Positions 3,386-27,047 are shown, counted from the first letter of the stretch. The stretch: DNA of 64,000 nt from Candidatus Eiseniibacteriota bacterium (GCA_016223045.1 JACRPT010000145.1:12040-76039), one strand, 5' to 3'. The notes: a model not told the origin generated them from the sequence alone. Numbers and translations are program-made.

Positions 3386-4411
3386 TCAGCGCGCGTCGAA
3401 GTGGTCGAAGCCCGCGCCGGGGAGCGGGCGCATGATCCCGTCGCGGCCGGCGAGGCCGAGCACGCCGGGCGCGCCGGTGAAGCGCCCGACGAAGGCGAGA
3501 GGCACGCCGGCCGCGCGCGCCGCGGCCTCGCAGTCGGCGCGACCGCCCGGCTCCACCGCCAGCAGCAGCTCGTAGTCGTCGCTCGGCCCGCAGCGGAGCG
3601 TCGCGAGCGGCACGCCCAGGCGTTCCGCGGCACGCACGAGCAGCGGGTCGTCGGGCCACGCCGCCTCCTCGACCTCCGCGCCGGTGCCGCTCGCCTCGCA
3701 CAGGTGGGCGAGGTCACCGGCGAAGCCGTCCGAGATGTCGATCGCCGCGGTGACCGCGCCGGTCCCGCGCAGCGCCCGCGCCAGCGCCACGTGCGCATGC
3801 GGCGCGAGCCACGCCTCGAGCAGCGGCTGCCACTCCGGCGCGCGGGCGCCCTCGCCCAGCGCGCGCGCCAGCGCCAGCCCGGCGCCCGCGCGCCCGGGCC
3901 TGCCCGAGACCGCGAGCAGGTCGCCCGGGCGCGCGCCGTAGCGCGTCCACGCGCGGCCGCGCGGCGTCTCGCCGACCAGCGTGAGCGAGTACCACTGCGC
4001 GCCCTCCACGGCGGCGAGATTGCCGCCGACCACCGCCGCACCCTCGGTCGCCAGCGCCGCGGCGAGCCCGGACTGCAGCGCGACCAGCTCGTCGGCGTCG
4101 GTGTCGGGGCGCGCGCCGATCGAGAGCAGCGCCCAGCGCGGGGTCGCCGCCATCGCCGCGAGGTCGCTCAGATTGGCGTGCGCGAGCCGCGCGCCGGTCG
4201 CGGCGGGCGCGCTCCACGCCGGCAGGAAGTGCCGGCCCTCGACGAACGCGTCCGTGGTGACCACGATGTCCGCGCCCGCGCCGGGCCTCAGCACCGCGGC
4301 GTCGTCGCCGGCGCCCACCACCACGTCCGGCTCCGCCGCCGCGTCCGCGCGCCGCGCGCGCTGGAGCCGGCGCAGCACCTCGAACTCGCCCAGCTCACGC
4401 AGGCTGGCCAT
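3386..4411 (-). CDS. thiL: Thiamine-monophosphate kinase ThiL (AIR-synthase-related family).
   Basis: N-terminus GEFEVLRRL...GDDAAVL...VVTTDAFVEGRHF and the mid-region SDLAAMAATP...VVGGNLAAVEG are characteristic of ThiL. Confidence 0.8.
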   Translation of the reverse strand: MASLRELGEFEVLRRLQRARRADAAAEPDVVVGAGDDAAVLRPGAGADIVVTTDAFVEGRHFLPAWSAPAATGARLAHANLSDLAAMAATPRWALLSIGARPDTDADELVALQSGLAAALATEGAAVVGGNLAAVEGAQWYSLTLVGETPRGRAWTRYGARPGDLLAVSGRPGRAGAGLALARALGEGARAPEWQPLLEAWLAPHAHVALARALRGTGAVTAAIDISDGFAGDLAHLCEASGTGAEVEEAAWPDDPLLVRAAERLGVPLATLRCGPSDDYELLLAVEPGGRADCEAAARAAGVPLAFVGRFTGAPGVLGLAGRDGIMRPLPGAGFDHFDAR

Positions 4412-18342: not shown

Positions 18343-19467
18343 TCACTCCTGGTCGCCGCCCCCTGCCCCCCGGCTCCACACCTCTCCCGACCACTCGAGG
18401 GAGAGCCCCACCTGGCTCACGCGGTAGCTGCCCGGATCGAACGTGGGCCGCGCGTTCGGGCCCATCGTCGCGGCGTTGTCCTCGTGGCGGAAGAAGCCGC
18501 GCGCCGAGAAGTGCGGGCGGTAGTGCGCGCGCAGCCCCACCTCGACCGCGTTGAGCAGGTCGCTGCGCCCGAAGTGATTCGCGTCGGCGGGCCGGTCGGA
18601 GTCGAAGTGGCGCGTGGCCAGCTGGTAGCCGACATCGCCCGTCAGCCGCCACGCCTTGCCGCGCGTCAGCTCGGCGCGGCCGCGCACGCCGGCGACGAAG
18701 CCGCTGTAGCTCAGGTCCTGGTCGTCGGGCGTGACGCCCGGTACCTCGTCGGCGTCCGCAGCCTTCGCCCGGCTCACGCGGTAGCCGCCCTCCAAGTCCA
18801 CGCTCCCGCGCGCGGGCAGACGGTTGAAGCCCAGGGCCAGCTCCCCCTGGTGCAGGTTCGCATCCCGCTCGACGAAGGCATCATCGTACGCGCGACCCTC
18901 ATAGCGGTAGCCGACCCCGATGTCGGTGTTCTTCGTGAGCCGCTGGTCCCAGCTCACGGTGCCGATCTGGAGCCGGAACGTGGCGCGGCGGTAGCGCGTC
19001 TGGCCCGGCACCAGCGGCAGGTCCTCGTCGAAGAGCTGGCGCAGGTAGTACCGGGGCAGGGTGAACCAGCCCAGCGAGAGCCGGCGGCCGCGCGCCCACG
19101 ATTCGCGCCACAGGACGCTCACCGAGCGGTAGTCCGCGGTGGCATTGCGGTCGTGGAAATCGCCTTCGCCCCTGAGCCGCAGCGCGTGCCTCCGGCCGTG
19201 CCCGGCGTCGCTCTCCCAGGTGAGCGCGAGCGAGGGGTTGAGGACCAGGTCGCCCTTGCTCGCGATCGAGAAGTGCGTGGGCTTGCTGCCCGAGTCGAAG
19301 ACGGTGAGCAGCGTATCCGAGTACTGGAGGATGTTGTCGTCGTAGGTGGTCGAGAGCCCGGTCGTGAGGCTGAGGCTCTGCCCGGCGGCCCGGGCGGGCG
19401 CGGCGAGGGCGGGCGATAGGGCGAGCACCATCAGCAGAACGGGCACGGCACGTCCTCGAGTCGTCAT
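18343..19467 (-). CDS. Putative outer-membrane beta-barrel protein; last gene of the pgs-like operon.
   Basis: Signal peptide MTTRGRAVPVLLMVLALSPALAAPARA. Alternating amphipathic beta-strand patterns with abundant Y/W/R/D/G are typical of OM barrels. Its start ATG overlaps the upstream stop as ATGA. Confidence 0.5.
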   Translation of the reverse strand: MTTRGRAVPVLLMVLALSPALAAPARAAGQSLSLTTGLSTTYDDNILQYSDTLLTVFDSGSKPTHFSIASKGDLVLNPSLALTWESDAGHGRRHALRLRGEGDFHDRNATADYRSVSVLWRESWARGRRLSLGWFTLPRYYLRQLFDEDLPLVPGQTRYRRATFRLQIGTVSWDQRLTKNTDIGVGYRYEGRAYDDAFVERDANLHQGELALGFNRLPARGSVDLEGGYRVSRAKAADADEVPGVTPDDQDLSYSGFVAGVRGRAELTRGKAWRLTGDVGYQLATRHFDSDRPADANHFGRSDLLNAVEVGLRAHYRPHFSARGFFRHEDNAATMGPNARPTFDPGSYRVSQVGLSLEWSGEVWSRGAGGGDQE

Positions 19468-20360
19468 TCCTCGTTCCCCACGGAAGGCTCCGGGATGCGC
19501 GCGTGGATCTCGGCCGAGCCGCGCACGGGCTGCACCAGCTCGATCGTGATCTCGTGCGTGCCCTCCCCCACGGGGAGGGTCGCGCGGTCGAACTTCGACG
19601 GCACCCGGTCCTTCAGGTTGGTGTAGGTGGCGGTTGTCGCCTTGGTGGTCCTGAACTCCACTTCGCTCAACACCTGCTTGCGCTCGCTGAAGCGCAGCCG
19701 ATAGCTCTGGGTGCCCCGCATCGTGGCGTCGTAGTCGAGCCGCGCGAGCACCTCGAGCGTGGTCGGCCCCACGACGCGCACGCGCACGGGTTGCCCCGGC
19801 ATCACGCTGTAGTAGGGGATCGTCTTCTCGCCCTCCGCCACCAGCACGCTGCGCGCGGCGGCCACCGGTGTGAGCGTCACCATCGGCGGTTCGCCCCCGC
19901 GCGGCGCCGATCGCTGGACGCGCACCAGTGCCGCGGCCGCGCCGCCCAGGGTGAGCGTGAGCCGATGGTTCCCGGCGGGCACGTCGAAGGTCATCTTGCG
20001 GCTCTTACCGAGCGCCGCGCTCCCGCCCTGGAGTCGCACCTCCGCCGCGGCCGAGCTCTCGGTCGCGAGCTCCTCGAGCAGGCGCCCACCCTCGAGCGCG
20101 CGCACGGCGTAGGCGGCGATCCGTGCCGAGCCGGGTGGCAGCTCCACCCGCGTCGTGAGGCGCACCTGCGCCGGGCCTTCCACCGTCACGGTGAGCGGGG
20201 CCTGCGGCGTCAGCCGGAAGTAGGCGCGCGGCTTCTCGCGCACCAGCACCTGCACCGGCGTGGCGCCGGGCAGCTTCTCGAACGCGGTCCAGCGCGCGGC
20301 CGCGGCCTCGCCGGCGGCGAGCGCGAGCGCCGCGAACGCGAGCGCGAGTCTCATCATCAT
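19464..20360 (-). CDS. Secreted/periplasmic hypothetical protein (299 aa) coupled into the pgs-like operon.
   Basis: Signal peptide MMMRLALAFAALALAAGEAAAA, beta-rich, no known motif recognised. ATGA overlaps at both ends. Confidence 0.45.
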   Translation of the reverse strand: MMMRLALAFAALALAAGEAAAARWTAFEKLPGATPVQVLVREKPRAYFRLTPQAPLTVTVEGPAQVRLTTRVELPPGSARIAAYAVRALEGGRLLEELATESSAAAEVRLQGGSAALGKSRKMTFDVPAGNHRLTLTLGGAAAALVRVQRSAPRGGEPPMVTLTPVAAARSVLVAEGEKTIPYYSVMPGQPVRVRVVGPTTLEVLARLDYDATMRGTQSYRLRFSERKQVLSEVEFRTTKATTATYTNLKDRVPSKFDRATLPVGEGTHEITIELVQPVRGSAEIHARIPEPSVGNEE

Positions 20361-21478
20361 GGGGGTGGGATCCTTTCGGGATGCGGGTGGCCCAGGACCT
20401 GCTGCCGCACGTCGCGGCGCAGCACGTAGATGTTCACGAGCAGGACGAGCAGCGCTGCGGCGGCGACGATCCAGAGGTTGTAGCGGTACTGGATGAAGAG
20501 CAGCCCGCTGCCGGGGCGGACCGGATTCGCCGCCCGGTCCGTGATCTCGAACATGCGCGCCAGCTTCTCGACCTGGAGCAGGTGGATGACCGGGATGCGG
20601 CGCTCGCCCATCACGTTGATGACGCCGCGGTTCGGGTAGTTGCGCGTGGTGAGCCGCATCGTGAGTCCGGCCGGGATGAGCCGGCCGTTCTGGGCGCCTC
20701 CGAGGCTCGCCACGCCGCCGCCCACGTTGATGTAGAGCCTGATGGCCCGGCCGCGCGCCGCCGCGATCGAGTCGTAGATCGCGACGCGCTGCCGGACCGC
20801 CTCGAGCACGCTGGGCGGGTCGAGCAGCTTGACGCCGTTGCGCTCGATGGCGTCGTCGAGCAGCACGCGGCCGGCCGGCGAGAGGCCGCGGCCCACGTCG
20901 CCGCCGCCGCCGAGCGAAGCGGCCGCCGAGCGGAACGGCCACAGCCCCCGCTGCACCGCGATCGCCTCCATGTCGAGCCATGTCAGGTTCGGGTCGGTGG
21001 CGCCGAACATCGAGGCGCCGGCCGAGGTGATGATGATCGGCTCCGCGCCGACCGCCCGGCAGGACGCGAGCGCCGCGAGGTTGAGGCCCGGCAGCGACCC
21101 GGTCATGCCCACGGCGACCAGGTCGCCCCGGCGCACGCCGGCTTGCAGCATCATCTGCGTCACCGCCGCGGCGAAGTTCGGGTGCGCGGCCAGGCTCTTC
21201 GCGGCCTGCGAGCCGCGATCGGTCGTGATCAACGTGAATTGCGGCCCGATGACGCCGGTGCGCTCCGGATCGTTGCGGGCGTCCACCGTGATGCCGCGCT
21301 CCCGCTTGACCTCCGCGATCGCCCGCTCGGCCCGCTGCATGAGGCGCACCGCCTCGAGCTTCTTCCTGAACGCCTCGGCATGGACCGGGGTCAGCGAGCG
21401 CTCGGAGATCGCGTAGACCGCGAGCGACAGCGCCGCGAGGCCGACCAGCGCGGGCGTGGAGGCGCGCGCGAGGCTCAT
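20357..21478 (-). CDS. Membrane-anchored 'poly-gamma-glutamate system' accessory protein, occupying the position where CapA would normally be.
   Basis: N-terminal TM helix and a C-terminal TM helix (NLWIVAAAALLVLLVNIYVL). No CapA metallophosphatase motifs. Start set at the ATG at 21478, which overlaps the pgsC stop as ATGA; the track start at 21550 would overlap pgsC by 76 nt. Confidence 0.5.
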   Translation of the reverse strand: MSLARASTPALVGLAALSLAVYAISERSLTPVHAEAFRKKLEAVRLMQRAERAIAEVKRERGITVDARNDPERTGVIGPQFTLITTDRGSQAAKSLAAHPNFAAAVTQMMLQAGVRRGDLVAVGMTGSLPGLNLAALASCRAVGAEPIIITSAGASMFGATDPNLTWLDMEAIAVQRGLWPFRSAAASLGGGGDVGRGLSPAGRVLLDDAIERNGVKLLDPPSVLEAVRQRVAIYDSIAAARGRAIRLYINVGGGVASLGGAQNGRLIPAGLTMRLTTRNYPNRGVINVMGERRIPVIHLLQVEKLARMFEITDRAANPVRPGSGLLFIQYRYNLWIVAAAALLVLLVNIYVLRRDVRQQVLGHPHPERIPPP

Positions 21479-21924
21479 CGGATCAGGGCCCCGCCGTGGA
21501 GCAGCATGAGCAGGAGCCGCACCAGCACCGCGGTCGTGACCATGACGCACAGCGTCTGGATCACGCCCTGGCGCTCCATCCAGTTCGCGATCAGGCCGGG
21601 GATGACGAAGCCGATGGTGCGCAGGTCCACCGGCACGTTCTGGAACTTGAGCACCATGAGGTCGCGCGAGAGCGCGCCGAACACGAACCCGATCAGGACC
21701 GCCACCACGATGCGCCGCCGCCCGTAGATGAGCGTGTAGCGCGACAGCAGCTGGAGCGCGCCCCAGGTGAGCAGCGCGATCCCCACGGTGCCGACGATGC
21801 GCAGCGGCTCGTGGATCATGAGCGCGAGGTAGCCCGGCACCACCATGCCGCCCGCCGCGAGGCCGAGGGTCTCGGAGAAGATGAGGCTGACGACCAGCCC
21901 GAGCCCGATCGCCTGCTCAACCAC
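21475..21924 (-). CDS. pgsC: Poly-gamma-glutamate synthase component PgsC/CapC.
   Basis: 149 aa, 4-5 TM. Matches B. subtilis PgsC in VVPGYL..., ...IYGRRR..., ...GFVIPGLIANWMERQG. Confidence 0.8.
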   Translation of the reverse strand: MVEQAIGLGLVVSLIFSETLGLAAGGMVVPGYLALMIHEPLRIVGTVGIALLTWGALQLLSRYTLIYGRRRIVVAVLIGFVFGALSRDLMVLKFQNVPVDLRTIGFVIPGLIANWMERQGVIQTLCVMVTTAVLVRLLLMLLHGGALIR

Positions 21925-23293
21925 GGCGCACCGCCCGGTTGCTGAAGTGGAGCGTGATCTCCTCCCCGAGTCCGACGATGTTGCCGATGCCGACGATCAC
22001 GGCTTCGTGCCGCACCAGCGCGAGCACGTGCTCGTAGACCGCCTCGGCACCGAGCCCGCCGAGGTTGCTGAGCCGCTCGCGGTCGAGACCTCCGTTCAGC
22101 GCCTGGAACGCCACCAGGTCCGTGCCCTCGCCGGAGAGCACCACGTGGTCGGCCGAGAGCCGTTTCGCCACCAGCTCGGCGATCTGCCCGGAGCGCTGCA
22201 GCCGGTCCGGGCGGCAGTTGGCGAGGATCATGCGCTGCACGCCCGGCCGCCGCTGCTCGAGCCCCAGGCGCTGCCAGATCAGCAGCGTCGAATCCGGGTC
22301 GTTTGCGGCGAAGGCGTTCACGAACTCCACCGTCTTGTCCCCCGACCGCACGGTGTAGCGGCGCAGCACCCCCGGGTCGGGCGCGGCGGCGTGCATGCCG
22401 GCGAGCGCGGCGGCGCGCGGCACCCCGAGGTGCGCGCACACCGCGAGCGCGAGCGCCACGTTCTCGGCGTGTTCGAAGTAGGAGAAGCCGGCCAGCTCCT
22501 CCACCGTCACGCCGTCGGGCGGGACCACGTGCACCGCGCTCCCGCGCCCGCGCGCCACCGCCTCGAGGATCCCTGCGCGTTCGCGCTCGGCGGTGAAGAG
22601 GTGCCCGCCCACCGGGCAGGTCTGGGCGAGGGCGTGCGCGACGTCGTCCACCGTGGGCCCCATGACGTCGAGATGGTCGGCGCGGCAGTTCGTGATCACG
22701 CCCACCGTGCTCTTGATGAGCCGCAGCTCGACGAGCGGCTGCAGCTCGGGCGTCACCGCCATGCACTCGATGACCAGCGCCGCGGCGCCGTCCTCGACCG
22801 CGCGCCGCACGATGCGGGTCTGCTCGATGATGTTGGGGCTGCCGACGCGGTAGACGTCCACCTCCAGGCCGTCGGGGCGGATGATGCGCGCCATGGTGCC
22901 GGTGGTCTTGGCGAAGGCGCGCACGCCCCCGGAGCGCAGGCCCGCCGCGATCAGCCGGGTGACCGAGGACTTGCCGCGTGTGCCGTTCACGTGCACGCGC
23001 ACCGGCAGGCGCGCGAGGTTGCGCTCGTGCGAGCGCATCTCCCACACGCCGTACGCTGCCAGCCCCGCGGTCAGGATGCCGGGAACGAGCGCGATGGTGT
23101 CACCTCCAGAACGATGTCCCCCGGACCGGGCGCCTGCGTTCGGCGCGCCCGGCCCCGGTGGACGCAGGAAGGCCCGGCGGTCGTCGCGCGTCGCGTGGAC
23201 GGCGTGGCCGACCCGGGCCCATGCCCGTCTATCGGCACGGGGCGCGCCGCACTGGAGAACGACCGGAGCACGACGCTGGAGCGGGCTGTGCAC
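21917..23293 (-). CDS. pgsB: Poly-gamma-glutamate synthetase PgsB/CapB (Mur-ligase-like amide ligase).
   Basis: LARLPVRVHVNGTRGKSSVTRLIAAGL (P-loop), ...IECMAV..., DHLDVMGPT and NAFAANDPDSTL are collinear with B. subtilis PgsB. An N-terminal TM helix (IALVPGILTAGLAAYGVW) precedes the P-loop. The real start is probably downstream of the GTG at 23293; no unambiguous in-frame start lies next to the TM helix. Confidence 0.85.
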   Translation of the reverse strand: MHSPLQRRAPVVLQCGAPRADRRAWARVGHAVHATRDDRRAFLRPPGPGAPNAGARSGGHRSGGDTIALVPGILTAGLAAYGVWEMRSHERNLARLPVRVHVNGTRGKSSVTRLIAAGLRSGGVRAFAKTTGTMARIIRPDGLEVDVYRVGSPNIIEQTRIVRRAVEDGAAALVIECMAVTPELQPLVELRLIKSTVGVITNCRADHLDVMGPTVDDVAHALAQTCPVGGHLFTAERERAGILEAVARGRGSAVHVVPPDGVTVEELAGFSYFEHAENVALALAVCAHLGVPRAAALAGMHAAAPDPGVLRRYTVRSGDKTVEFVNAFAANDPDSTLLIWQRLGLEQRRPGVQRMILANCRPDRLQRSGQIAELVAKRLSADHVVLSGEGTDLVAFQALNGGLDRERLSNLGGLGAEAVYEHVLALVRHEAVIVGIGNIVGLGEEITLHFSNRAVRRG

Positions 23294-23625: not shown

Positions 23626-24471
23626 CTACTTCCCCATGCGGCGCTTCCGCCCGACGAACAGGCTCGTCGCCAGCCCGGCACCGGTGAAGGCTCCCTTGAG
23701 CTCGCTGGCGAACAGGTCGCCCGCCTCGGCGGCGAGCCTCGCCGCAGACTCGCCTTCGATCCCCACGCCCTTGAAGTACGCGGCCGCCGTTTCGCGGTCG
23801 CGCGCCGTGCGGGTCTCCGAGCGCTGCAGGTAGAGGTGCGAGACCAGGTGCACGATCCGGCCCTCGCCTTCGTCCCACTCCACCACCACGGCGTCGGCGC
23901 CGAACCGCCGGCCGACCTCGGCGCTCTTCACCAGCACGCGCACGCGGTCCCGGTCGAGCACCTCGCACGGGTAGCTCGCGCCCTCCATCCACCACAGCGG
24001 GTCGCGCCCGTCCTCGCGGAACCCCGCGAGCAGCGGGTGGTCCCCCACCGGCTCCACCCTGACCACGCAGTCCGGGATGCTGCCTCCCGTGTACTTCACG
24101 CGGCCCGGGAAGGCGCGCTCGAGCAGGTGCTTCAACGCCCAGTCCGTGGTGCCGAGGTGCCCGCCCTCGCGCACCCACTGGACGAGCCTGCGCAGCGCAG
24201 TCGCCGGGAGCCGCCCCGGGCAATTCACCCAGACCACCTGCGCGCGCGCCCAGTCGATGCCGGCGAGGTCCGCCGGCGCGACCTGGACGAACGGCACGCC
24301 GATGGCGCGCAGCACGCGCCCGATGTGGTCGTAGTCCCCGAGCACCTCGACGATCTCGCCGGGCTCGGCCTGCGCGAGCAGCTCCGCGTCCTCGGGATTC
24401 GACCTCTGCAGCACGTCGCGGAAGGCCTTCGCCGCGACGTCGAACGCCCGCTCCATCCTCTCCTTCTCCAT
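23626..24471 (-). CDS. Conserved hypothetical protein (281 aa); second gene of the cassette divergent to the XRE/S24 repressor.
   Basis: Strong RBS AAAGGAG before the ATG at 24471. VVWVNCPGRLPATALRRLVQWVREGGHLGTTDWAL loosely resembles a non-catalytic class-I glutamine-amidotransferase-like (ThuA/DJ-1-type) fold. No confident assignment. Confidence 0.5.
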   Translation of the reverse strand: MEKERMERAFDVAAKAFRDVLQRSNPEDAELLAQAEPGEIVEVLGDYDHIGRVLRAIGVPFVQVAPADLAGIDWARAQVVWVNCPGRLPATALRRLVQWVREGGHLGTTDWALKHLLERAFPGRVKYTGGSIPDCVVRVEPVGDHPLLAGFREDGRDPLWWMEGASYPCEVLDRDRVRVLVKSAEVGRRFGADAVVVEWDEGEGRIVHLVSHLYLQRSETRTARDRETAAAYFKGVGIEGESAARLAAEAGDLFASELKGAFTGAGLATSLFVGRKRRMGK

Positions 24472-24521
24472 GCTCTCTCTCCTTTCGTCTCGTCTTCCGC
24501 GTCCCCCGCGGGGACGCGCCT

Positions 24522-25490
24522 CTACTCTCCGAACACCGCCAGGTGCGCCAGCGCGTCGGCGGCCCACAGGCCGGCGCCGGCGAAGCCGCGGCCCGTGAGC
24601 GCGAGCTGCGCGCCGAGTCCGCGCGACGGGCGCGCCTGCACGAGCGCGGTCGCGATCCTCGCGATCCAGTCGGTCCCCGCCCGCTCCGGCGCGCCCGCAC
24701 GCGCTCCAGGCTGGAGCGCGAGCGCCTCGACCGCCAGCAGGTAGGACGGCATCACGACCGGGCGCAGCGCGGCCCAGGTGTCCGGGTGACCGAACACCTC
24801 GAGGCCCAGCAATCGGCCGTGCGCGAGCGCCAGGATCCCGACTTCGCCCGGCACCTGGTCGAAGGCGCGGGCGCGGTCCTCCGCCTCGCGCCGGTGCGCG
24901 GCCGCGCCGGCCATGTAGTCCCCGGTCGCCGAGCGGACCCCATGCGCCGAGAGAGCGCGCGCGACGTCCGCCCACAGGCGGCCCTGGTCCACGTGGCCTT
25001 TCGCGGCGGCCTCGGCGACCGTGTGCCGTCGAAGGGCGGGCTCGACCGGAAGATCGCCGACGGCGAACCTGGACGAGGCTCCGCCCCAGCGCCCCTGCTG
25101 CACGCAGCCGACCTTCACCGGCACCGTCTGCACCGGTCCGATGAGCGTGGTCTCCACGACCACCCGGTTCTGCTTCGCGCCGACCAGGCTCGAGCCCTCC
25201 GGCACCAGCACCGGGGCCGGTCCCCGGTTGCACACGACGACCTCGTTGACGACCCCGCCGCCCTGCTCGACCACTTCCACATGGCCGGCCTTGACTGCCT
25301 GGTGGAGGAGCAGGTACGAAGGTCCGGGTGCGCCCTCGAGCCGGAGCGGGAAGATCTCCAGTGGGCCGGCGACCCGGGAAGCCTCCGGCCTGAGGCGGCC
25401 GAGCCAGAAGGCGACCCGGGCTTCGCTCCAGGGGTGTTCGGCCCCAGGGCTGCCGGCCCATGGTTGGAAAGCAGCGGATATCGCGCTCAC
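24522..25490 (-). CDS. Conserved hypothetical protein (323 aa); first gene of the cassette divergent to the XRE/S24 repressor.
   Basis: RBS AAAGGAGG 5 nt before a GTG start at 25490. Conserved-looking motif ...LVPEGSSLVGAKQNRVVVETTLIGPVQTVPVKVGCVQQGRW... . I half-recall a family with a GxKQNR...VPVxCVExGRW signature, but the identity could not be established from sequence alone. Confidence 0.5.
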   Translation of the reverse strand: MSAISAAFQPWAGSPGAEHPWSEARVAFWLGRLRPEASRVAGPLEIFPLRLEGAPGPSYLLLHQAVKAGHVEVVEQGGGVVNEVVVCNRGPAPVLVPEGSSLVGAKQNRVVVETTLIGPVQTVPVKVGCVQQGRWGGASSRFAVGDLPVEPALRRHTVAEAAAKGHVDQGRLWADVARALSAHGVRSATGDYMAGAAAHRREAEDRARAFDQVPGEVGILALAHGRLLGLEVFGHPDTWAALRPVVMPSYLLAVEALALQPGARAGAPERAGTDWIARIATALVQARPSRGLGAQLALTGRGFAGAGLWAADALAHLAVFGE

Positions 25491-25493
25491 GGG

Positions 25494-25668
25494 AGCCTCC
25501 TTTGATGACCAGTGCTGGTCGCATTTGTCGCGCAGCGCCACCTTGCCATGGATTTCGGCTCCTAGCCTGCATCACCGGGCATATATACCGCTTGTGGTCG
25601 CAATTGGTCAAGGGATATATTTAGAGCGCCATGAGCTATGAATTGGTCGCCAGACTGGCGAGGCGCTG
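25494..25668. promoter_or_regulatory. Divergent promoter/operator region between the hypothetical cassette and the XRE/S24 repressor.
   Basis: Locally AT-enriched. TATATA-type -10-like elements at about 25580 and 25614. Three copies of TGGTCGC(A/C) at 25516, 25595 and 25644. A CAATTG palindrome and a 13-bp palindrome CGCCAGACTGGCG at 25648-25660 abut the repressor start. Confidence 0.4.
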
Positions 25669-26697
25669 GTGCTTCCCATGAACCCTCCGCGGCGCGGCCG
25701 CCCTTCCGAAGAGACGAGCCACCCGGTGGGCGGCTACCTGCGCCGCCGCCGCGAGTCGCTCGGCCTCACCACCCGGGACCTGGCCGTCAGGGCCGGGCTC
25801 AACCCCAGTTCGGCGTCCTACATCTCCCAGCTCGAGTCGGGGGCGAAGGTGCCGAGCCGGGATCTGGCGCTGCGGCTGGCCGGGGTCCTCGGGGATGACC
25901 CGCGGATCTACCTCGCGTGGGCCGACCTGGGGAAGCGCGCGGACCCGGTTGCCCACGTCCATGCGCGGCACCTGCTATCTCGACTGCTGGGCGACGCGCG
26001 GCTCGAGGTGCGCCTGACCTCGCCTGAGGACGTGATGCTCGGGGAGGTCCCCGGGCGCCCCACGGAGCGGGCGGGCCAGCGCCGGGCACTGGCCTCGTTC
26101 TTCAAGGCGCGGAAGGCCATGGCGTCCGCGGCGGCGGGGCGGGTCGCCCCCTCGTACGCCGACGCCACGCCCCTGTCCTCCGCGCTGCGAGTCCCTCCGC
26201 GAGCGAAGGAGGACCACCTCCAGGCTGACCCGGTCCGCGCGCTGCGGTCCGTCGCCGAGGGCGCACTGGCGACGCTGGCGTGGGTCCCCATCCCCGAGAT
26301 CAGGGGGGGCGCGGACCCGGGGGAGGACCCGCGGGCGCCCCAGAACGTGATCACCGTACATCGGGTCAGGGCGGAGGCGCTCGAAGGCATGGAGCCGCTC
26401 CGGCACCCGTTCGCCTGCTGGGTCTCGGACGAGGACGCGCGGCACCTCGGCCGGGCGCTCATGCCCCGCGACATCGCGATCCTCACCCGGCGCGTCCTGC
26501 CACTCGACCCGCACCAGCCCTACGCCGTGCGCGTCGAGGGCCGGGTCCTGCTGCGCTACGTGAAATGGAACGGGCGCCACCTGCTCCTGCTCGGTGAGCG
26601 CGACGAGGACTTCGTCACCGTCGAGGCGCCCGACGAACCCGCCCTCAGCCGCGCGCTGGCGGGCAAGGTGGTGGCGACCATCCCCGCCCGGCGCTAG
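25669..26697 (+). CDS. LexA/CI-like repressor: N-terminal XRE-family HTH + C-terminal S24 (LexA-type) peptidase domain.
   Basis: HTH: LGLTTRDLAVRAGLNPSSASYISQLESGAKVPSRDLALRLAGVL. C-terminal ...AVRVEGRVLLRYVKWNGRHLLLLGERDEDFVTVEAPDE...AGKVVATI fits the S24 beta-fold with a candidate Ser/Lys dyad (WVSDED / RYVKW). Confidence 0.7.
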   Translation: MLPMNPPRRGRPSEETSHPVGGYLRRRRESLGLTTRDLAVRAGLNPSSASYISQLESGAKVPSRDLALRLAGVLGDDPRIYLAWADLGKRADPVAHVHARHLLSRLLGDARLEVRLTSPEDVMLGEVPGRPTERAGQRRALASFFKARKAMASAAAGRVAPSYADATPLSSALRVPPRAKEDHLQADPVRALRSVAEGALATLAWVPIPEIRGGADPGEDPRAPQNVITVHRVRAEALEGMEPLRHPFACWVSDEDARHLGRALMPRDIAILTRRVLPLDPHQPYAVRVEGRVLLRYVKWNGRHLLLLGERDEDFVTVEAPDEPALSRALAGKVVATIPARR

Positions 26698-26705
26698 CCG
26701 CCCCC

Positions 26706-27047
26706 GTGCCCCTCCCCTCCCACCTCGAGCGCCTGGCCCGCGAGTGCGAGGTCACACCCTTCAAGTCCTCGGGCCCCGGCGGGCAGAAGAAGAACAAGAC
26801 CGAGTCGAGCGTGCGCGTGCGGCACCTGCCGAGCGGGATCGTGCGCATCGCGACCGAGAGCCGCTCGCAGGCGCGCAACCGCGCCCTGGCGCTCGAGCGG
26901 GTGTGGGAGGAGATCAGGCGGCGGGCCCGCCGGCCGAAGCCGCGCCGGGCGACCAGGCCGCACGCCGGGGCGGTGGAGAAGCGCCTCACCGCGAAGCGGC
27001 GCGCGGCGGAGAGGAAGCGCGCGCGGCGGCAGGCCGCGGAGGAGTAG
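26706..27047 (+). CDS. arfB: ArfB/YaeJ-like peptidyl-tRNA hydrolase (minimal GGQ-domain ribosome-rescue factor), 113 aa.
   Basis: SSGPGGQKKNKTESSV GGQ motif at residues 24-26, and a highly basic C-terminal tail (RRRARRPKPRRATRP...KRRAAERKRARRQ) like ArfB. GTG start 8 nt after the repressor stop. Confidence 0.65.
   Translation: MPLPSHLERLARECEVTPFKSSGPGGQKKNKTESSVRVRHLPSGIVRIATESRSQARNRALALERVWEEIRRRARRPKPRRATRPHAGAVEKRLTAKRRAAERKRARRQAAEE

Follow-up and report, generated by a model that had tools for sequence, protein, structure and literature searches.

The stretch of DNA analysed here is a 64-kb window from a metagenome-assembled genome (MAG) of Candidatus Eisenbacteria (JACRPT010000145.1:12040-76039). 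In its segment 23626-27047, a regulator of the XRE type faces a divergent cassette of two genes, one for ARPP-1 and one that we call gene B, and is followed by a short gene for a GGQ-domain protein resembling the ribosome-rescue factor ArfB. Our favoured reading, which we hold tentatively and would not yet call probable, is that a pseudo-LexA XRE repressor, with the LexA fold but without the protease chemistry, gates a divergent module acting on ADP-ribose or sugar adducts, and at the same time heads the operon with the GGQ gene. The regulatory architecture behind this reading is well supported. Most likely, a dimer of the regulator would recognise palindromes of the CTGGT/ACCAG type, which adjoin both ribosome-binding sites and also lie between two AT-rich promoter boxes arranged back to back. 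In this position it would repress not only its own operon, consisting of the regulator and the ArfB-like GGQ factor, but also the divergent cassette. The pseudo-protease domain would probably trigger its release, either in response to a ligand or a partner protein or through cleavage in trans. The released cassette would supply ARPP-1 and gene B, which would most plausibly process ADP-ribose-type or other sugar-linked macromolecule adducts, in stress or in genetic conflict.

The open reading frames (ORFs), Shine-Dalgarno sites and spacings of this locus lie at or very near the positions given by a first-pass annotation of the same DNA (Table 1). The region between the divergent genes is low in GC and rich in repeats, as that annotation had described, and its length is 178 bp instead of the 175 bp it gave. 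The product of gene B is 100% identical to HZC42_13965, and the gap between gene B and the ARPP-1 gene is exactly 50 nt. The GTG start of the regulator is kept in its relatives, and the NCBI annotation has a product of 339 aa from an ATG at 25678.

The cassette, its products and its distribution

According to the first-pass annotation neither cassette product could be assigned, but one of them is ARPP-1 and the other has a fold resembling class-I glutamine amidotransferases (GATase1). The product of the first cassette gene matches PF20208 over profile positions 6-297 of 297 (E 4.3e-60, 204 bits versus a cutoff of 27), and its conserved Gln motif (GAKQNR, 104-109, with Gln107) and Cys motif (CVQQGRW, 129-135, with Cys129) stand 25 residues apart. 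Of 16 cassette-linked homologs that were checked, 11 have the same GxKQNR/CxxxGRW pair at this 25-residue spacing. ARPP-1, the ARG- and rhodanese-phosphatase-associated protein, was defined computationally by Iyer, Burroughs, Anand and Aravind in 2022 (PMC9503650), and ARPP proteins were predicted there to act on ribose moieties, perhaps via a covalent link between Cys and sugar.

Gene B is the founding member of a family that had no annotation and whose fold resembles that of class-I glutamine amidotransferases (ThuA/DUF4350-like); the family comprises approximately 1600 clusters at 50% identity from bacteria, Asgard archaea and a rotifer. When it was compared with family hidden Markov models, none scored above threshold (DUF4350 reached E 0.05). 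Invariant in the family are C84-P85 (within NCPG), T109-D110-W111-A112, W160-W161-x-E163, H208, S211-H212, Q216-R217 and R221, and the protein further has two terminal helices, a long one on the N-terminal side and a basic one on the C-terminal side. A weak hhalign match to PdxT (E 0.28, with an approximate PdxT query) puts the invariant D110 at the position of the Cys, and by motif order H212 is at the position of the catalytic His, with Y214 in place of the Glu. Strand order and the weak hhalign match also suggest that NCPG corresponds to the PGG oxyanion strand, so that the predicted pocket would join Cys84, Asp110 and His212. Compared with the class-I GATase-like superfamily (ThuA-like, DUF4350, Pdx2/HisH and DJ-1/PfpI), gene B thus differs in an elbow residue that is apparently Asp110 and not Cys, and in the invariant Cys84 before PG. 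A rhodanese-phosphatase identity for gene B was rejected, since there is no CX5R motif and the fold is that of GATase1.

A scan limited to a single genome for each species yielded 194 genomes with gene B, among them Acidobacteriota, Gemmatimonadota, Actinomycetota, Chloroflexota, Bacteroidota and several Asgard archaea; members of the family are present in Heimdall-, Hod-, Freya-, Jord-, Kari- and Wukong-archaeota MAGs. Neighbouring genes were clustered for a sample of 84 non-redundant gene-B loci. ARPP-1 adjoins gene B in 17 of these (16 by clustering, and L004 by gene call and tblastn), and an ArsR-type helix-turn-helix (HTH) protein is encoded directly downstream of gene B in 24. All 17 ARPP-1/gene-B loci have a divergent XRE regulator, which is of the LexA-fold kind in Acidobacteriota and Gemmatimonadota, short in Actinomycetota, and an IrrE/ImmA-like fusion to Peptidase_M78 in Thermoleophilia. 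Another four loci have the XRE regulator and gene B without ARPP-1. Gene B precedes ARPP-1 in Acidobacteriota, Gemmatimonadota and the Actinomycetota loci with a short XRE regulator, and follows it in the window and in Thermoleophilia. The ARPP-1/gene-B/XRE module is therefore conserved in at least four phyla, and, in line with the first-pass annotation, XRE regulators of a derepressible type stand guard over such cassettes in other phyla, XRE-Peptidase_M78 fusions included. The window cassette does not lie in a defence island; the flanks hold housekeeping genes for poly-gamma-glutamate synthesis and PhoU-pst genes.

The chemistry of the two enzymes is a contextual inference. The role in ADP-ribose metabolism is proposed on account of the association with ADP-ribosylglycohydrolase systems by which ARPP-1 was defined, an ADP-ribosylglycohydrolase gene located one gene from gene B in two of the gene B-ArsR loci (L002 and L024), and the fusions of gene B with PBZ and FHA domains. 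Among 77 long members of the gene-B family, the fused domains were FHA (11), SH3b (5), HEAT (3), PBZ (2), kinase (1) and GGACT (1). One fusion protein, from the bdelloid rotifer Rotaria sordida (CAF0906928.1, P0325), joins three PBZ poly-ADP-ribose-binding fingers to the gene-B domain, and P0336 also belongs to the fusion proteins of this family, together with P0325 and 10 others. Several individual loci have further neighbours. In L006-L008 (3396-11800), gene B and ArsR are followed by an unknown protein of 253 aa and a protein of 381 aa with a weak IrrE/M78 match, and the flanks, which hold GmrSD and a SmaI restriction-modification system equipped with a C-protein of its own, look like a defence island. 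In a Miltoncostaeaceae MAG, the short XRE regulator that faces gene B (L044, 4154-4903, minus strand) itself has a C-terminal MGMT-type DNA_binding_1 domain (27.4 bits, cutoff 27), a further unusual appendage of sensor type on a regulator of this cassette.

The same evidence bears on an alternative that we regard as unlikely, though it deserves serious weight, in which the cassette would serve ordinary stress responses or metabolism, perhaps in electrophile or glycation detoxification or in the hydrolysis of gamma-glutamyl or amide compounds, under a ligand-responsive repressor and with no role in conflict or ADP-ribose metabolism. DJ-1/PfpI-type proteins and gamma-glutamyl hydrolases both belong to the GATase1 superfamily, the GGACT fusion mentioned above is one to a gamma-glutamyl cyclotransferase domain, and the ArsR-type partner of gene B in 24 of the 84 loci is a sensor. 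In the window, moreover, the cassette lies directly upstream of the poly-gamma-glutamate genes (Mur-ligase-like and CapC) and in the same orientation, which is suggestive for a protein with the GATase1 fold because gamma-glutamyl hydrolases have the same fold; the flanks are housekeeping genes, and no compositional (GC) anomaly was found at the locus. However, the adjacency to poly-gamma-glutamate genes was absent from every other locus examined, and ARPP-1 has so far occurred only in contexts of the conflict type or of sugar nucleotides. The module is also scattered over at least four phyla, is decaying in sister genomes, and has had its regulator replaced by analogous ones, which are traits of accessory conflict genes. 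A phage or plasmid origin of the module was considered too and was rejected, as gene B is absent from IMG/VR and has a single megaplasmid match, the regulator has no plasmid matches, and the GC content is not anomalous.

The control region and the GGQ gene

The operator assignment and the inducing signal are inferred, the former from repeats, palindromes and constraint in the divergent control region (Table 1). The repeats that had been noted in the first pass are all present: three copies of TGGTCGC[A/C] (at 25516, 25595 and 25644), CAATTG (25601-25606) and CGCCAGACTGGCG (25648-25660), of which the last is the sole exact copy in the window. TGGTCGC[A/C] occurs 11 times elsewhere in the 64 kb, which gives a Poisson P of ~5e-6 for at least three copies in 178 bp. 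Two elements had been missed, the perfect palindrome GACCAGTGCTGGTC, also without another exact copy in the window and located 4 nt from the ribosome-binding site of ARPP-1 (25496-25502), and the inverted pair of AT boxes around TGGTCGCAATTGGTC. No Rfam match was found in the region at E<=1.

The control region is shared with three relatives, L091, L092 and L090, with regulators that match that of the window at 67%, 67% and 65% identity, and an alignment of the window, L091 and L090 was used to compare it block by block. Overall, the identity to the window is 84% for L091 and 74% for L090, against ~61-65% expected for neutral sites from a dS (synonymous divergence) of 0.47-0.55; for L091 the neutral expectation is about 63%. 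Because the control region is under purifying selection, the repeats are beyond chance. In the three relatives the arms of palindrome 1, GACCA and TGGTC, are invariant and the 4-nt centre varies (GTGC, ACAC, CTAT). A GACCA-N4-TGGTC palindrome whose arms are fixed and whose centre varies is what one classically expects where a dimer binds, and it may be such a site here, a hairpin in the 5' untranslated region being the alternative. The AT boxes and TGGTCGCAA are kept in the same three relatives, and the half-sites of palindrome 1 recur in the central element between both promoters; the whole of 25580-25621 probably represents back-to-back promoters with a shared operator. On the strand of the cassette, the candidate promoter reads TTGACC-N18-TATATA. 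Its -35 hexamer decays in L090, which has lost the cassette, and the promoter elements on the cassette side decay solely where the cassette is lost. Palindrome 2 overlaps the ribosome-binding site of the regulator (GAGG, 25660-25663) and is a candidate autoregulatory operator or leader hairpin. The leader of the regulator also contains an ORF of 16 codons, MSYELVARLARRWCFP plus stop (25632-25682, plus strand), the stop of which overlaps the annotated ATG (ATGA). It was rejected as a coding sequence: the four substitutions seen among the three relatives all affect the first or second codon position and are all non-synonymous, and the stop shifts, which argues for constraint on the DNA or RNA and not on a peptide.

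In more distant loci linked to the cassette the same arrangement recurs with palindromes of the form TTTAC-N6-GTAAA, of which one occupies the promoter spacer and the other closely precedes the ribosome-binding site of the first cassette gene. A CTGGT(A/C) core recurs across the upstream regions of the regulator family, including L100 and L097. These regulators, which belong to a second, GGQ-linked lineage, have conserved upstream elements of their own, CCATATCTGGTAATCAA (L100, 3760-3930; L097, 3890-3950), and the upstream region of L100, which lies ~2.6 kb from dnaA, has in addition the palindrome CTTTAC-G-GTAAAG.

Table 1. Positions in the window of the genes, regulator domains and control-region elements discussed in the text.
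Feature	Position	Strand	Details
Gene B (second cassette gene)	23626-24471	-	281 aa; ATG start, AAGGAG before the start
ARPP-1 gene (first cassette gene)	24522-25490	-	322 aa; GTG start, AAGGAGG 5 nt upstream
Divergent control region	25491-25668		178 bp, GC 0.56 versus 0.72-0.78 in the flanks; three constrained blocks, fast-evolving spacer at 25535-25577
Block A	25491-25534		Ribosome-binding site and palindrome 1; identity to window 86% (L091), 77% (L090)
Palindrome 1, perfect 14 bp, GACCAGTGCTGGTC	25507-25520		Candidate operator or possibly 5'-untranslated-region hairpin
Block B	25535-25577		Spacer; identity to window 70% (L091), 47% (L090)
Block C	25578-25611		AT box and TGGTCGCAATTGGTC; identity to window 85% (L091), 76% (L090)
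AT boxes, inverted pair, CATATATACC and GGGATATATT	25580-25589 and 25612-25621		Enclose TGGTCGCAATTGGTC
Central element TGGTCGCAATTGGTC	25595-25609		Between the inverted AT boxes; whole element 25580-25621
Block D	25612-25668		AT box, leader and palindrome 2; identity to window 91% (L091), 91% (L090)
Palindrome 2, TCGCCAG-A-CTGGCGA	25647-25661		Candidate autoregulatory operator or leader hairpin
Regulator gene	25669-26697	+	342 aa; GTG start, GAGG 5 nt upstream
N-terminal RRGRP (AT-hook-like), in PPRRGRP	25681-25701		Residues ~5-11
XRE helix-turn-helix	25729-25902		Residues ~21-78
Disordered linker			Follows the helix-turn-helix
Conserved PE-x-x-G-x-DPG motif			Between linker and C-terminal domain
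LexA-fold C-terminal domain	~26275-26694		
Short ArfB-like GGQ gene	26706-27047	+	113 aa; 8 nt past the regulator stop
Mur-ligase-like (PgsB/CapB-type) gene and CapC gene	19464-23293	-	Directly downstream of the cassette, co-oriented

In the GGQ protein, residues 22-26 read GPGGQ and the C-terminal tail is basic; the protein matches the RF-1 domain with E 3.9e-18. Its matches in the PDB include GGQ domains of RF1/RF2 and ArfB tails (chains 7jss and 4v95), and with the ArfB equivalog NF006718 it reached 62.1 bits, below the NCBIfam cutoff of 100, with only the C-terminal half (44-111) aligned. The family is very abundant and conserved, with hundreds of 113-aa homologs at 73-93% identity. The NCBI version of the protein is 104 aa (P0182) and nearly all homologs are 113 aa; the start of the latter matches the GTG at 26706, and it is this longer form that yields the 8-nt spacing to the regulator stop.

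The coupling of regulator and GGQ factor, to which the first-pass annotation had drawn attention, is real and conserved in two lineages. A regulator gene followed by the GGQ gene was found in the window and in L090, L091 and L092, and in a second lineage in L095, L096 and L100, and the data further suggest two more such pairs. Where gene calls exist (the window, L090-L092 and L100) the gap is 4-11 nt, and the GGQ gene is probably co-transcribed with the regulator. The regulators of the second lineage are just 41% identical to that of the window, and genes for an MFS transporter and a GNAT acetyltransferase flank the pair there in place of the cassette and PhoU. Accidental synteny of the ArfB-like gene was favoured at first, in view of L093 and L094, and was dropped after the pairs in L100, L095 and L096: the link is not accidental, because regulators with 41% identity precede the same GGQ protein of 113-115 aa amid different flanks. 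The XRE loci linked to the cassette in other genomes have no RF-1 gene, and the window lineage joins both contexts, cassette and GGQ gene, around one regulator.

Which of the two contexts the regulator serves could be read differently. The regulator would then act on nothing but the operon that it forms with the ArfB-like gene, the cassette being an inserted neighbour outside its control. The window regulator is closest to the GGQ-linked 'type a' subfamily (41%), with which it shares the nearly identical recognition helix SSASY[IL]SQ[LI]ESG, and it is 28-32% identical to the cassette-linked Acidobacteriota regulators ('type b', ISPSYISLIEKG). The cassette is missing from L100 and L097, and where it is frameshifted or deleted in the sister genomes, both the regulator and block D (91%) are intact. 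Nevertheless, block A is 86% identical to that of L091 and keeps its fixed palindrome arms and variable centre beside the ribosome-binding site of ARPP-1, the GACCA/TGGTC half-sites recur in the central element common to both promoters, and elsewhere an XRE regulator stands divergently at this very position in all 17 ARPP-1/gene-B loci. We consider it improbable that the cassette is outside the control of the regulator.

The C-terminal domain of the regulator

The regulator combines an HTH_3/HTH_31 domain (XRE, Cro/CI-type) with a C-terminal domain (CTD) that has the S24-type beta-fold, that is, the LexA fold. Approximately 60 members of its family were retrieved, and a metagenome scan found at least five regulator loci. 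The HTH matches the PADLOC capH model (E 1.4e-5) and HTH_VI. Preceding it throughout the family is an AT-hook-like motif, RRGRP(P/S)(K/E)PT-HPVG (in L100 at 3932-4000), which is omitted from many database entries that begin at an internal Met; it may contact the ATATAT boxes beside the TGGTC sites.

The CTD had been taken for an S24 autoprotease, and this did not hold. A match to the Peptidase_S24 Pfam profile was found neither in the window regulator nor in the precomputed domains of 60 homologs, nor with the isolated CTD at E<=10, and homology of the CTD to LexA, UmuD or CI at the sequence level was not significant by hhalign. The hhalign alignments to LexA were used for register only, with the retained GD-hydrophobic motif and the strand 'R-V-x-W-N-G-R-x-LLLLP' (compare LexA 'R-L-K-K-Q-G-N-K-V-E-LLP') as anchors. 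In an alignment of 42 sequences, column 293, equivalent to Lys156 of LexA, contains S26/A10/R4/T1/G1 and is Arg in the window, and no invariant Lys was present anywhere in the CTD. The window clade has a Lys three residues further on (Lys296 in the window), a position that is Leu in 36 of the 42 sequences. The equivalent of V-A-A-G-E-P in LexA is E-E-G-A-D-P (column 210, E39/G2/N1; column 211, G41), so that the scissile Ala84-Gly85 of LexA is replaced by Glu-Gly in the family and by Gly-Gly in the window regulator, neither of them an Ala-Gly or Cys-Gly bond. There is no GxSM motif, and the position equivalent to S119 is Arg or Gly/Asp, depending on the sequence register. S250, which is nearly invariant (S38/T4) and forms a helix N-cap much like Ser119 of LexA, may be structurally equivalent to that nucleophile. 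The Ser/Lys dyad, which the first-pass annotation itself had named as decisive, is therefore missing its lysine.

Because the regulator is without the catalytic lysine of LexA, self-cleavage of the LexA type, whether RecA-stimulated or not, is unlikely. An ordinary LexA was rejected, since the DNA-binding domain is XRE and not a winged HTH and the S24 profile finds no match; together with the lost Lys and Ala-Gly, these features distinguish the regulator from LexA, lambda CI and UmuD. It is thus very unlikely that the regulator is a genuine LexA/CI-type autoprotease, whose cleavage upon DNA damage and RecA activation would derepress a damage-response or defence cassette, even considering the LexA fold of the CTD, S250, the displaced Lys of the window clade and the XRE-M78 regulators of the Thermoleophilia cassettes, an architecture with known stress-triggered cleavage.

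When the window is compared with L090, HTH and CTD have ratios of nonsynonymous to synonymous divergence (dN/dS) of 0.40 and 0.23, which means that both are under purifying selection, and the linker, with a ratio of 1.35, is neutral. In view of this low dN/dS the dead-protease domain must be functional in some way, and by analogy with the non-cleaving CI of phage 186 it may be read as a dimerisation and sensor domain. The window regulator resembles 186 CI in lacking self-cleavage features. Inactivation of 186 CI occurs by an antirepressor and is not known to involve self-cleavage.

Weighing the evidence and relation to known systems

Several observations speak against a repressor that gates an ADP-ribose or sugar-adduct module and heads the GGQ operon. 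With respect to the enzymes, the link to ADP-ribose is guilt by association, drawn from context. The adjacency to ADP-ribosylglycohydrolase occurs in just 2 of the 24 ArsR-type loci, PBZ fusions make up only 2 of the 77 long members, and no gene for ADP-ribosylglycohydrolase, a macro domain or an ART was found near the window cassette. As many as 39 of the 84 gene-B loci have no conserved partner, and the mapping of Asp110 to the nucleophile elbow comes from a non-significant hhalign and secondary-structure order. The PADLOC-DB 2.0 models do not match ARPP-1, gene B or the GGQ protein, gene B is absent from IMG/VR, and the window cassette has housekeeping flanks. In the sister genomes the cassette has decayed and the regulator persists: ARPP-1 is frameshifted near residue 76-78 in L091 (88-1057) and L092 (1679-2800), gene B is absent from L092, and all that is left of ARPP-1 in L090 (1705-1870) are ~15 codons from its start and 36 from its end, beside a secreted protein of 550 aa. 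The regulator and the GGQ gene are intact in all three, as is block D in L090 and L092. With respect to regulation, a strict sigma-70 scan of the control region found no site, the GGQ gene lies beside PhoU-pstBAC without the regulator in the Eisenbacteria-like contigs L093 and L094, and the window regulator clusters with the GGQ-linked subfamily and not with the cassette-linked Acidobacteriota type, so that its control of the cassette is deduced from position and footprinting only.

Each part of the locus belongs to a recognisable fold or family. With the ARG-centred ARPP systems (PMC9503650) the cassette has in common a full-length ARPP-1 with its Cys and Gln, a dedicated transcription factor, and a patchy distribution with quick gain and loss. 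It differs in the partner, which has the GATase1 fold, in the regulator, which is XRE and not WYL or Nudix, and in that neither an ADP-ribosylglycohydrolase nor a rhodanese-phosphatase is present among the window ORFs at 19.4-31 kb. The three additional ARPP neighbourhoods described in that paper are those with HIRAN, WYL and an aminosugar deacetylase, and the pairing of ARPP-1 with gene B and XRE is not among them. As in the CapH/CapP (CBASS), ImmR/ImmA and DdrO/IrrE systems, a divergent XRE repressor guards an accessory cassette, and its HTH matches capH; unlike in those systems, there is no M78 protease in the window and the sensor domain has the LexA fold. The GGQ protein shares its GGQ motif with ArfB (YaeJ) and ICT1, and its basic C-terminal tail can be aligned with that of ArfB, but it is ~25-30 residues shorter and its gene is preceded by that of a dedicated transcription factor. 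We know of no earlier case in which such a factor precedes an ArfB gene or controls an ArfB-type rescue factor.

A more far-reaching proposal is that the one repressor couples the removal or capture of ADP-ribose adducts to the rescue of ribosomes stalled on them, the insult being ADP-ribosylating toxins directed against mRNA, tRNA or translation factors, and the arginine-rich cleft of the CTD sensing an ADP-ribose-derived or nucleotide ligand; this we regard as a long shot.

In the literature searched, the regulator family with a LexA fold that lacks the dyad, the GATase1-fold family with its pairing to ARPP-1, and the conserved operon of regulator and ArfB-like gene all appear to be undescribed. 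If our reading of the locus as a gated module with its own GGQ operon is true, the regulator would represent a class that keeps the LexA fold as a sensor or dimerisation domain without the protease chemistry. The compact, repressor-gated three-gene unit, which could be transferred to a model host, would offer a genetic handle on ARPP-1, so far a computational prediction only, and gene B would stand for a large unannotated enzyme family whose neighbours and fusions (ADP-ribosylglycohydrolase, PBZ and FHA) point to ADP-ribose or protein-modification signalling. Finally, an ArfB-type rescue factor under a dedicated transcription factor would make regulated ribosome rescue testable.

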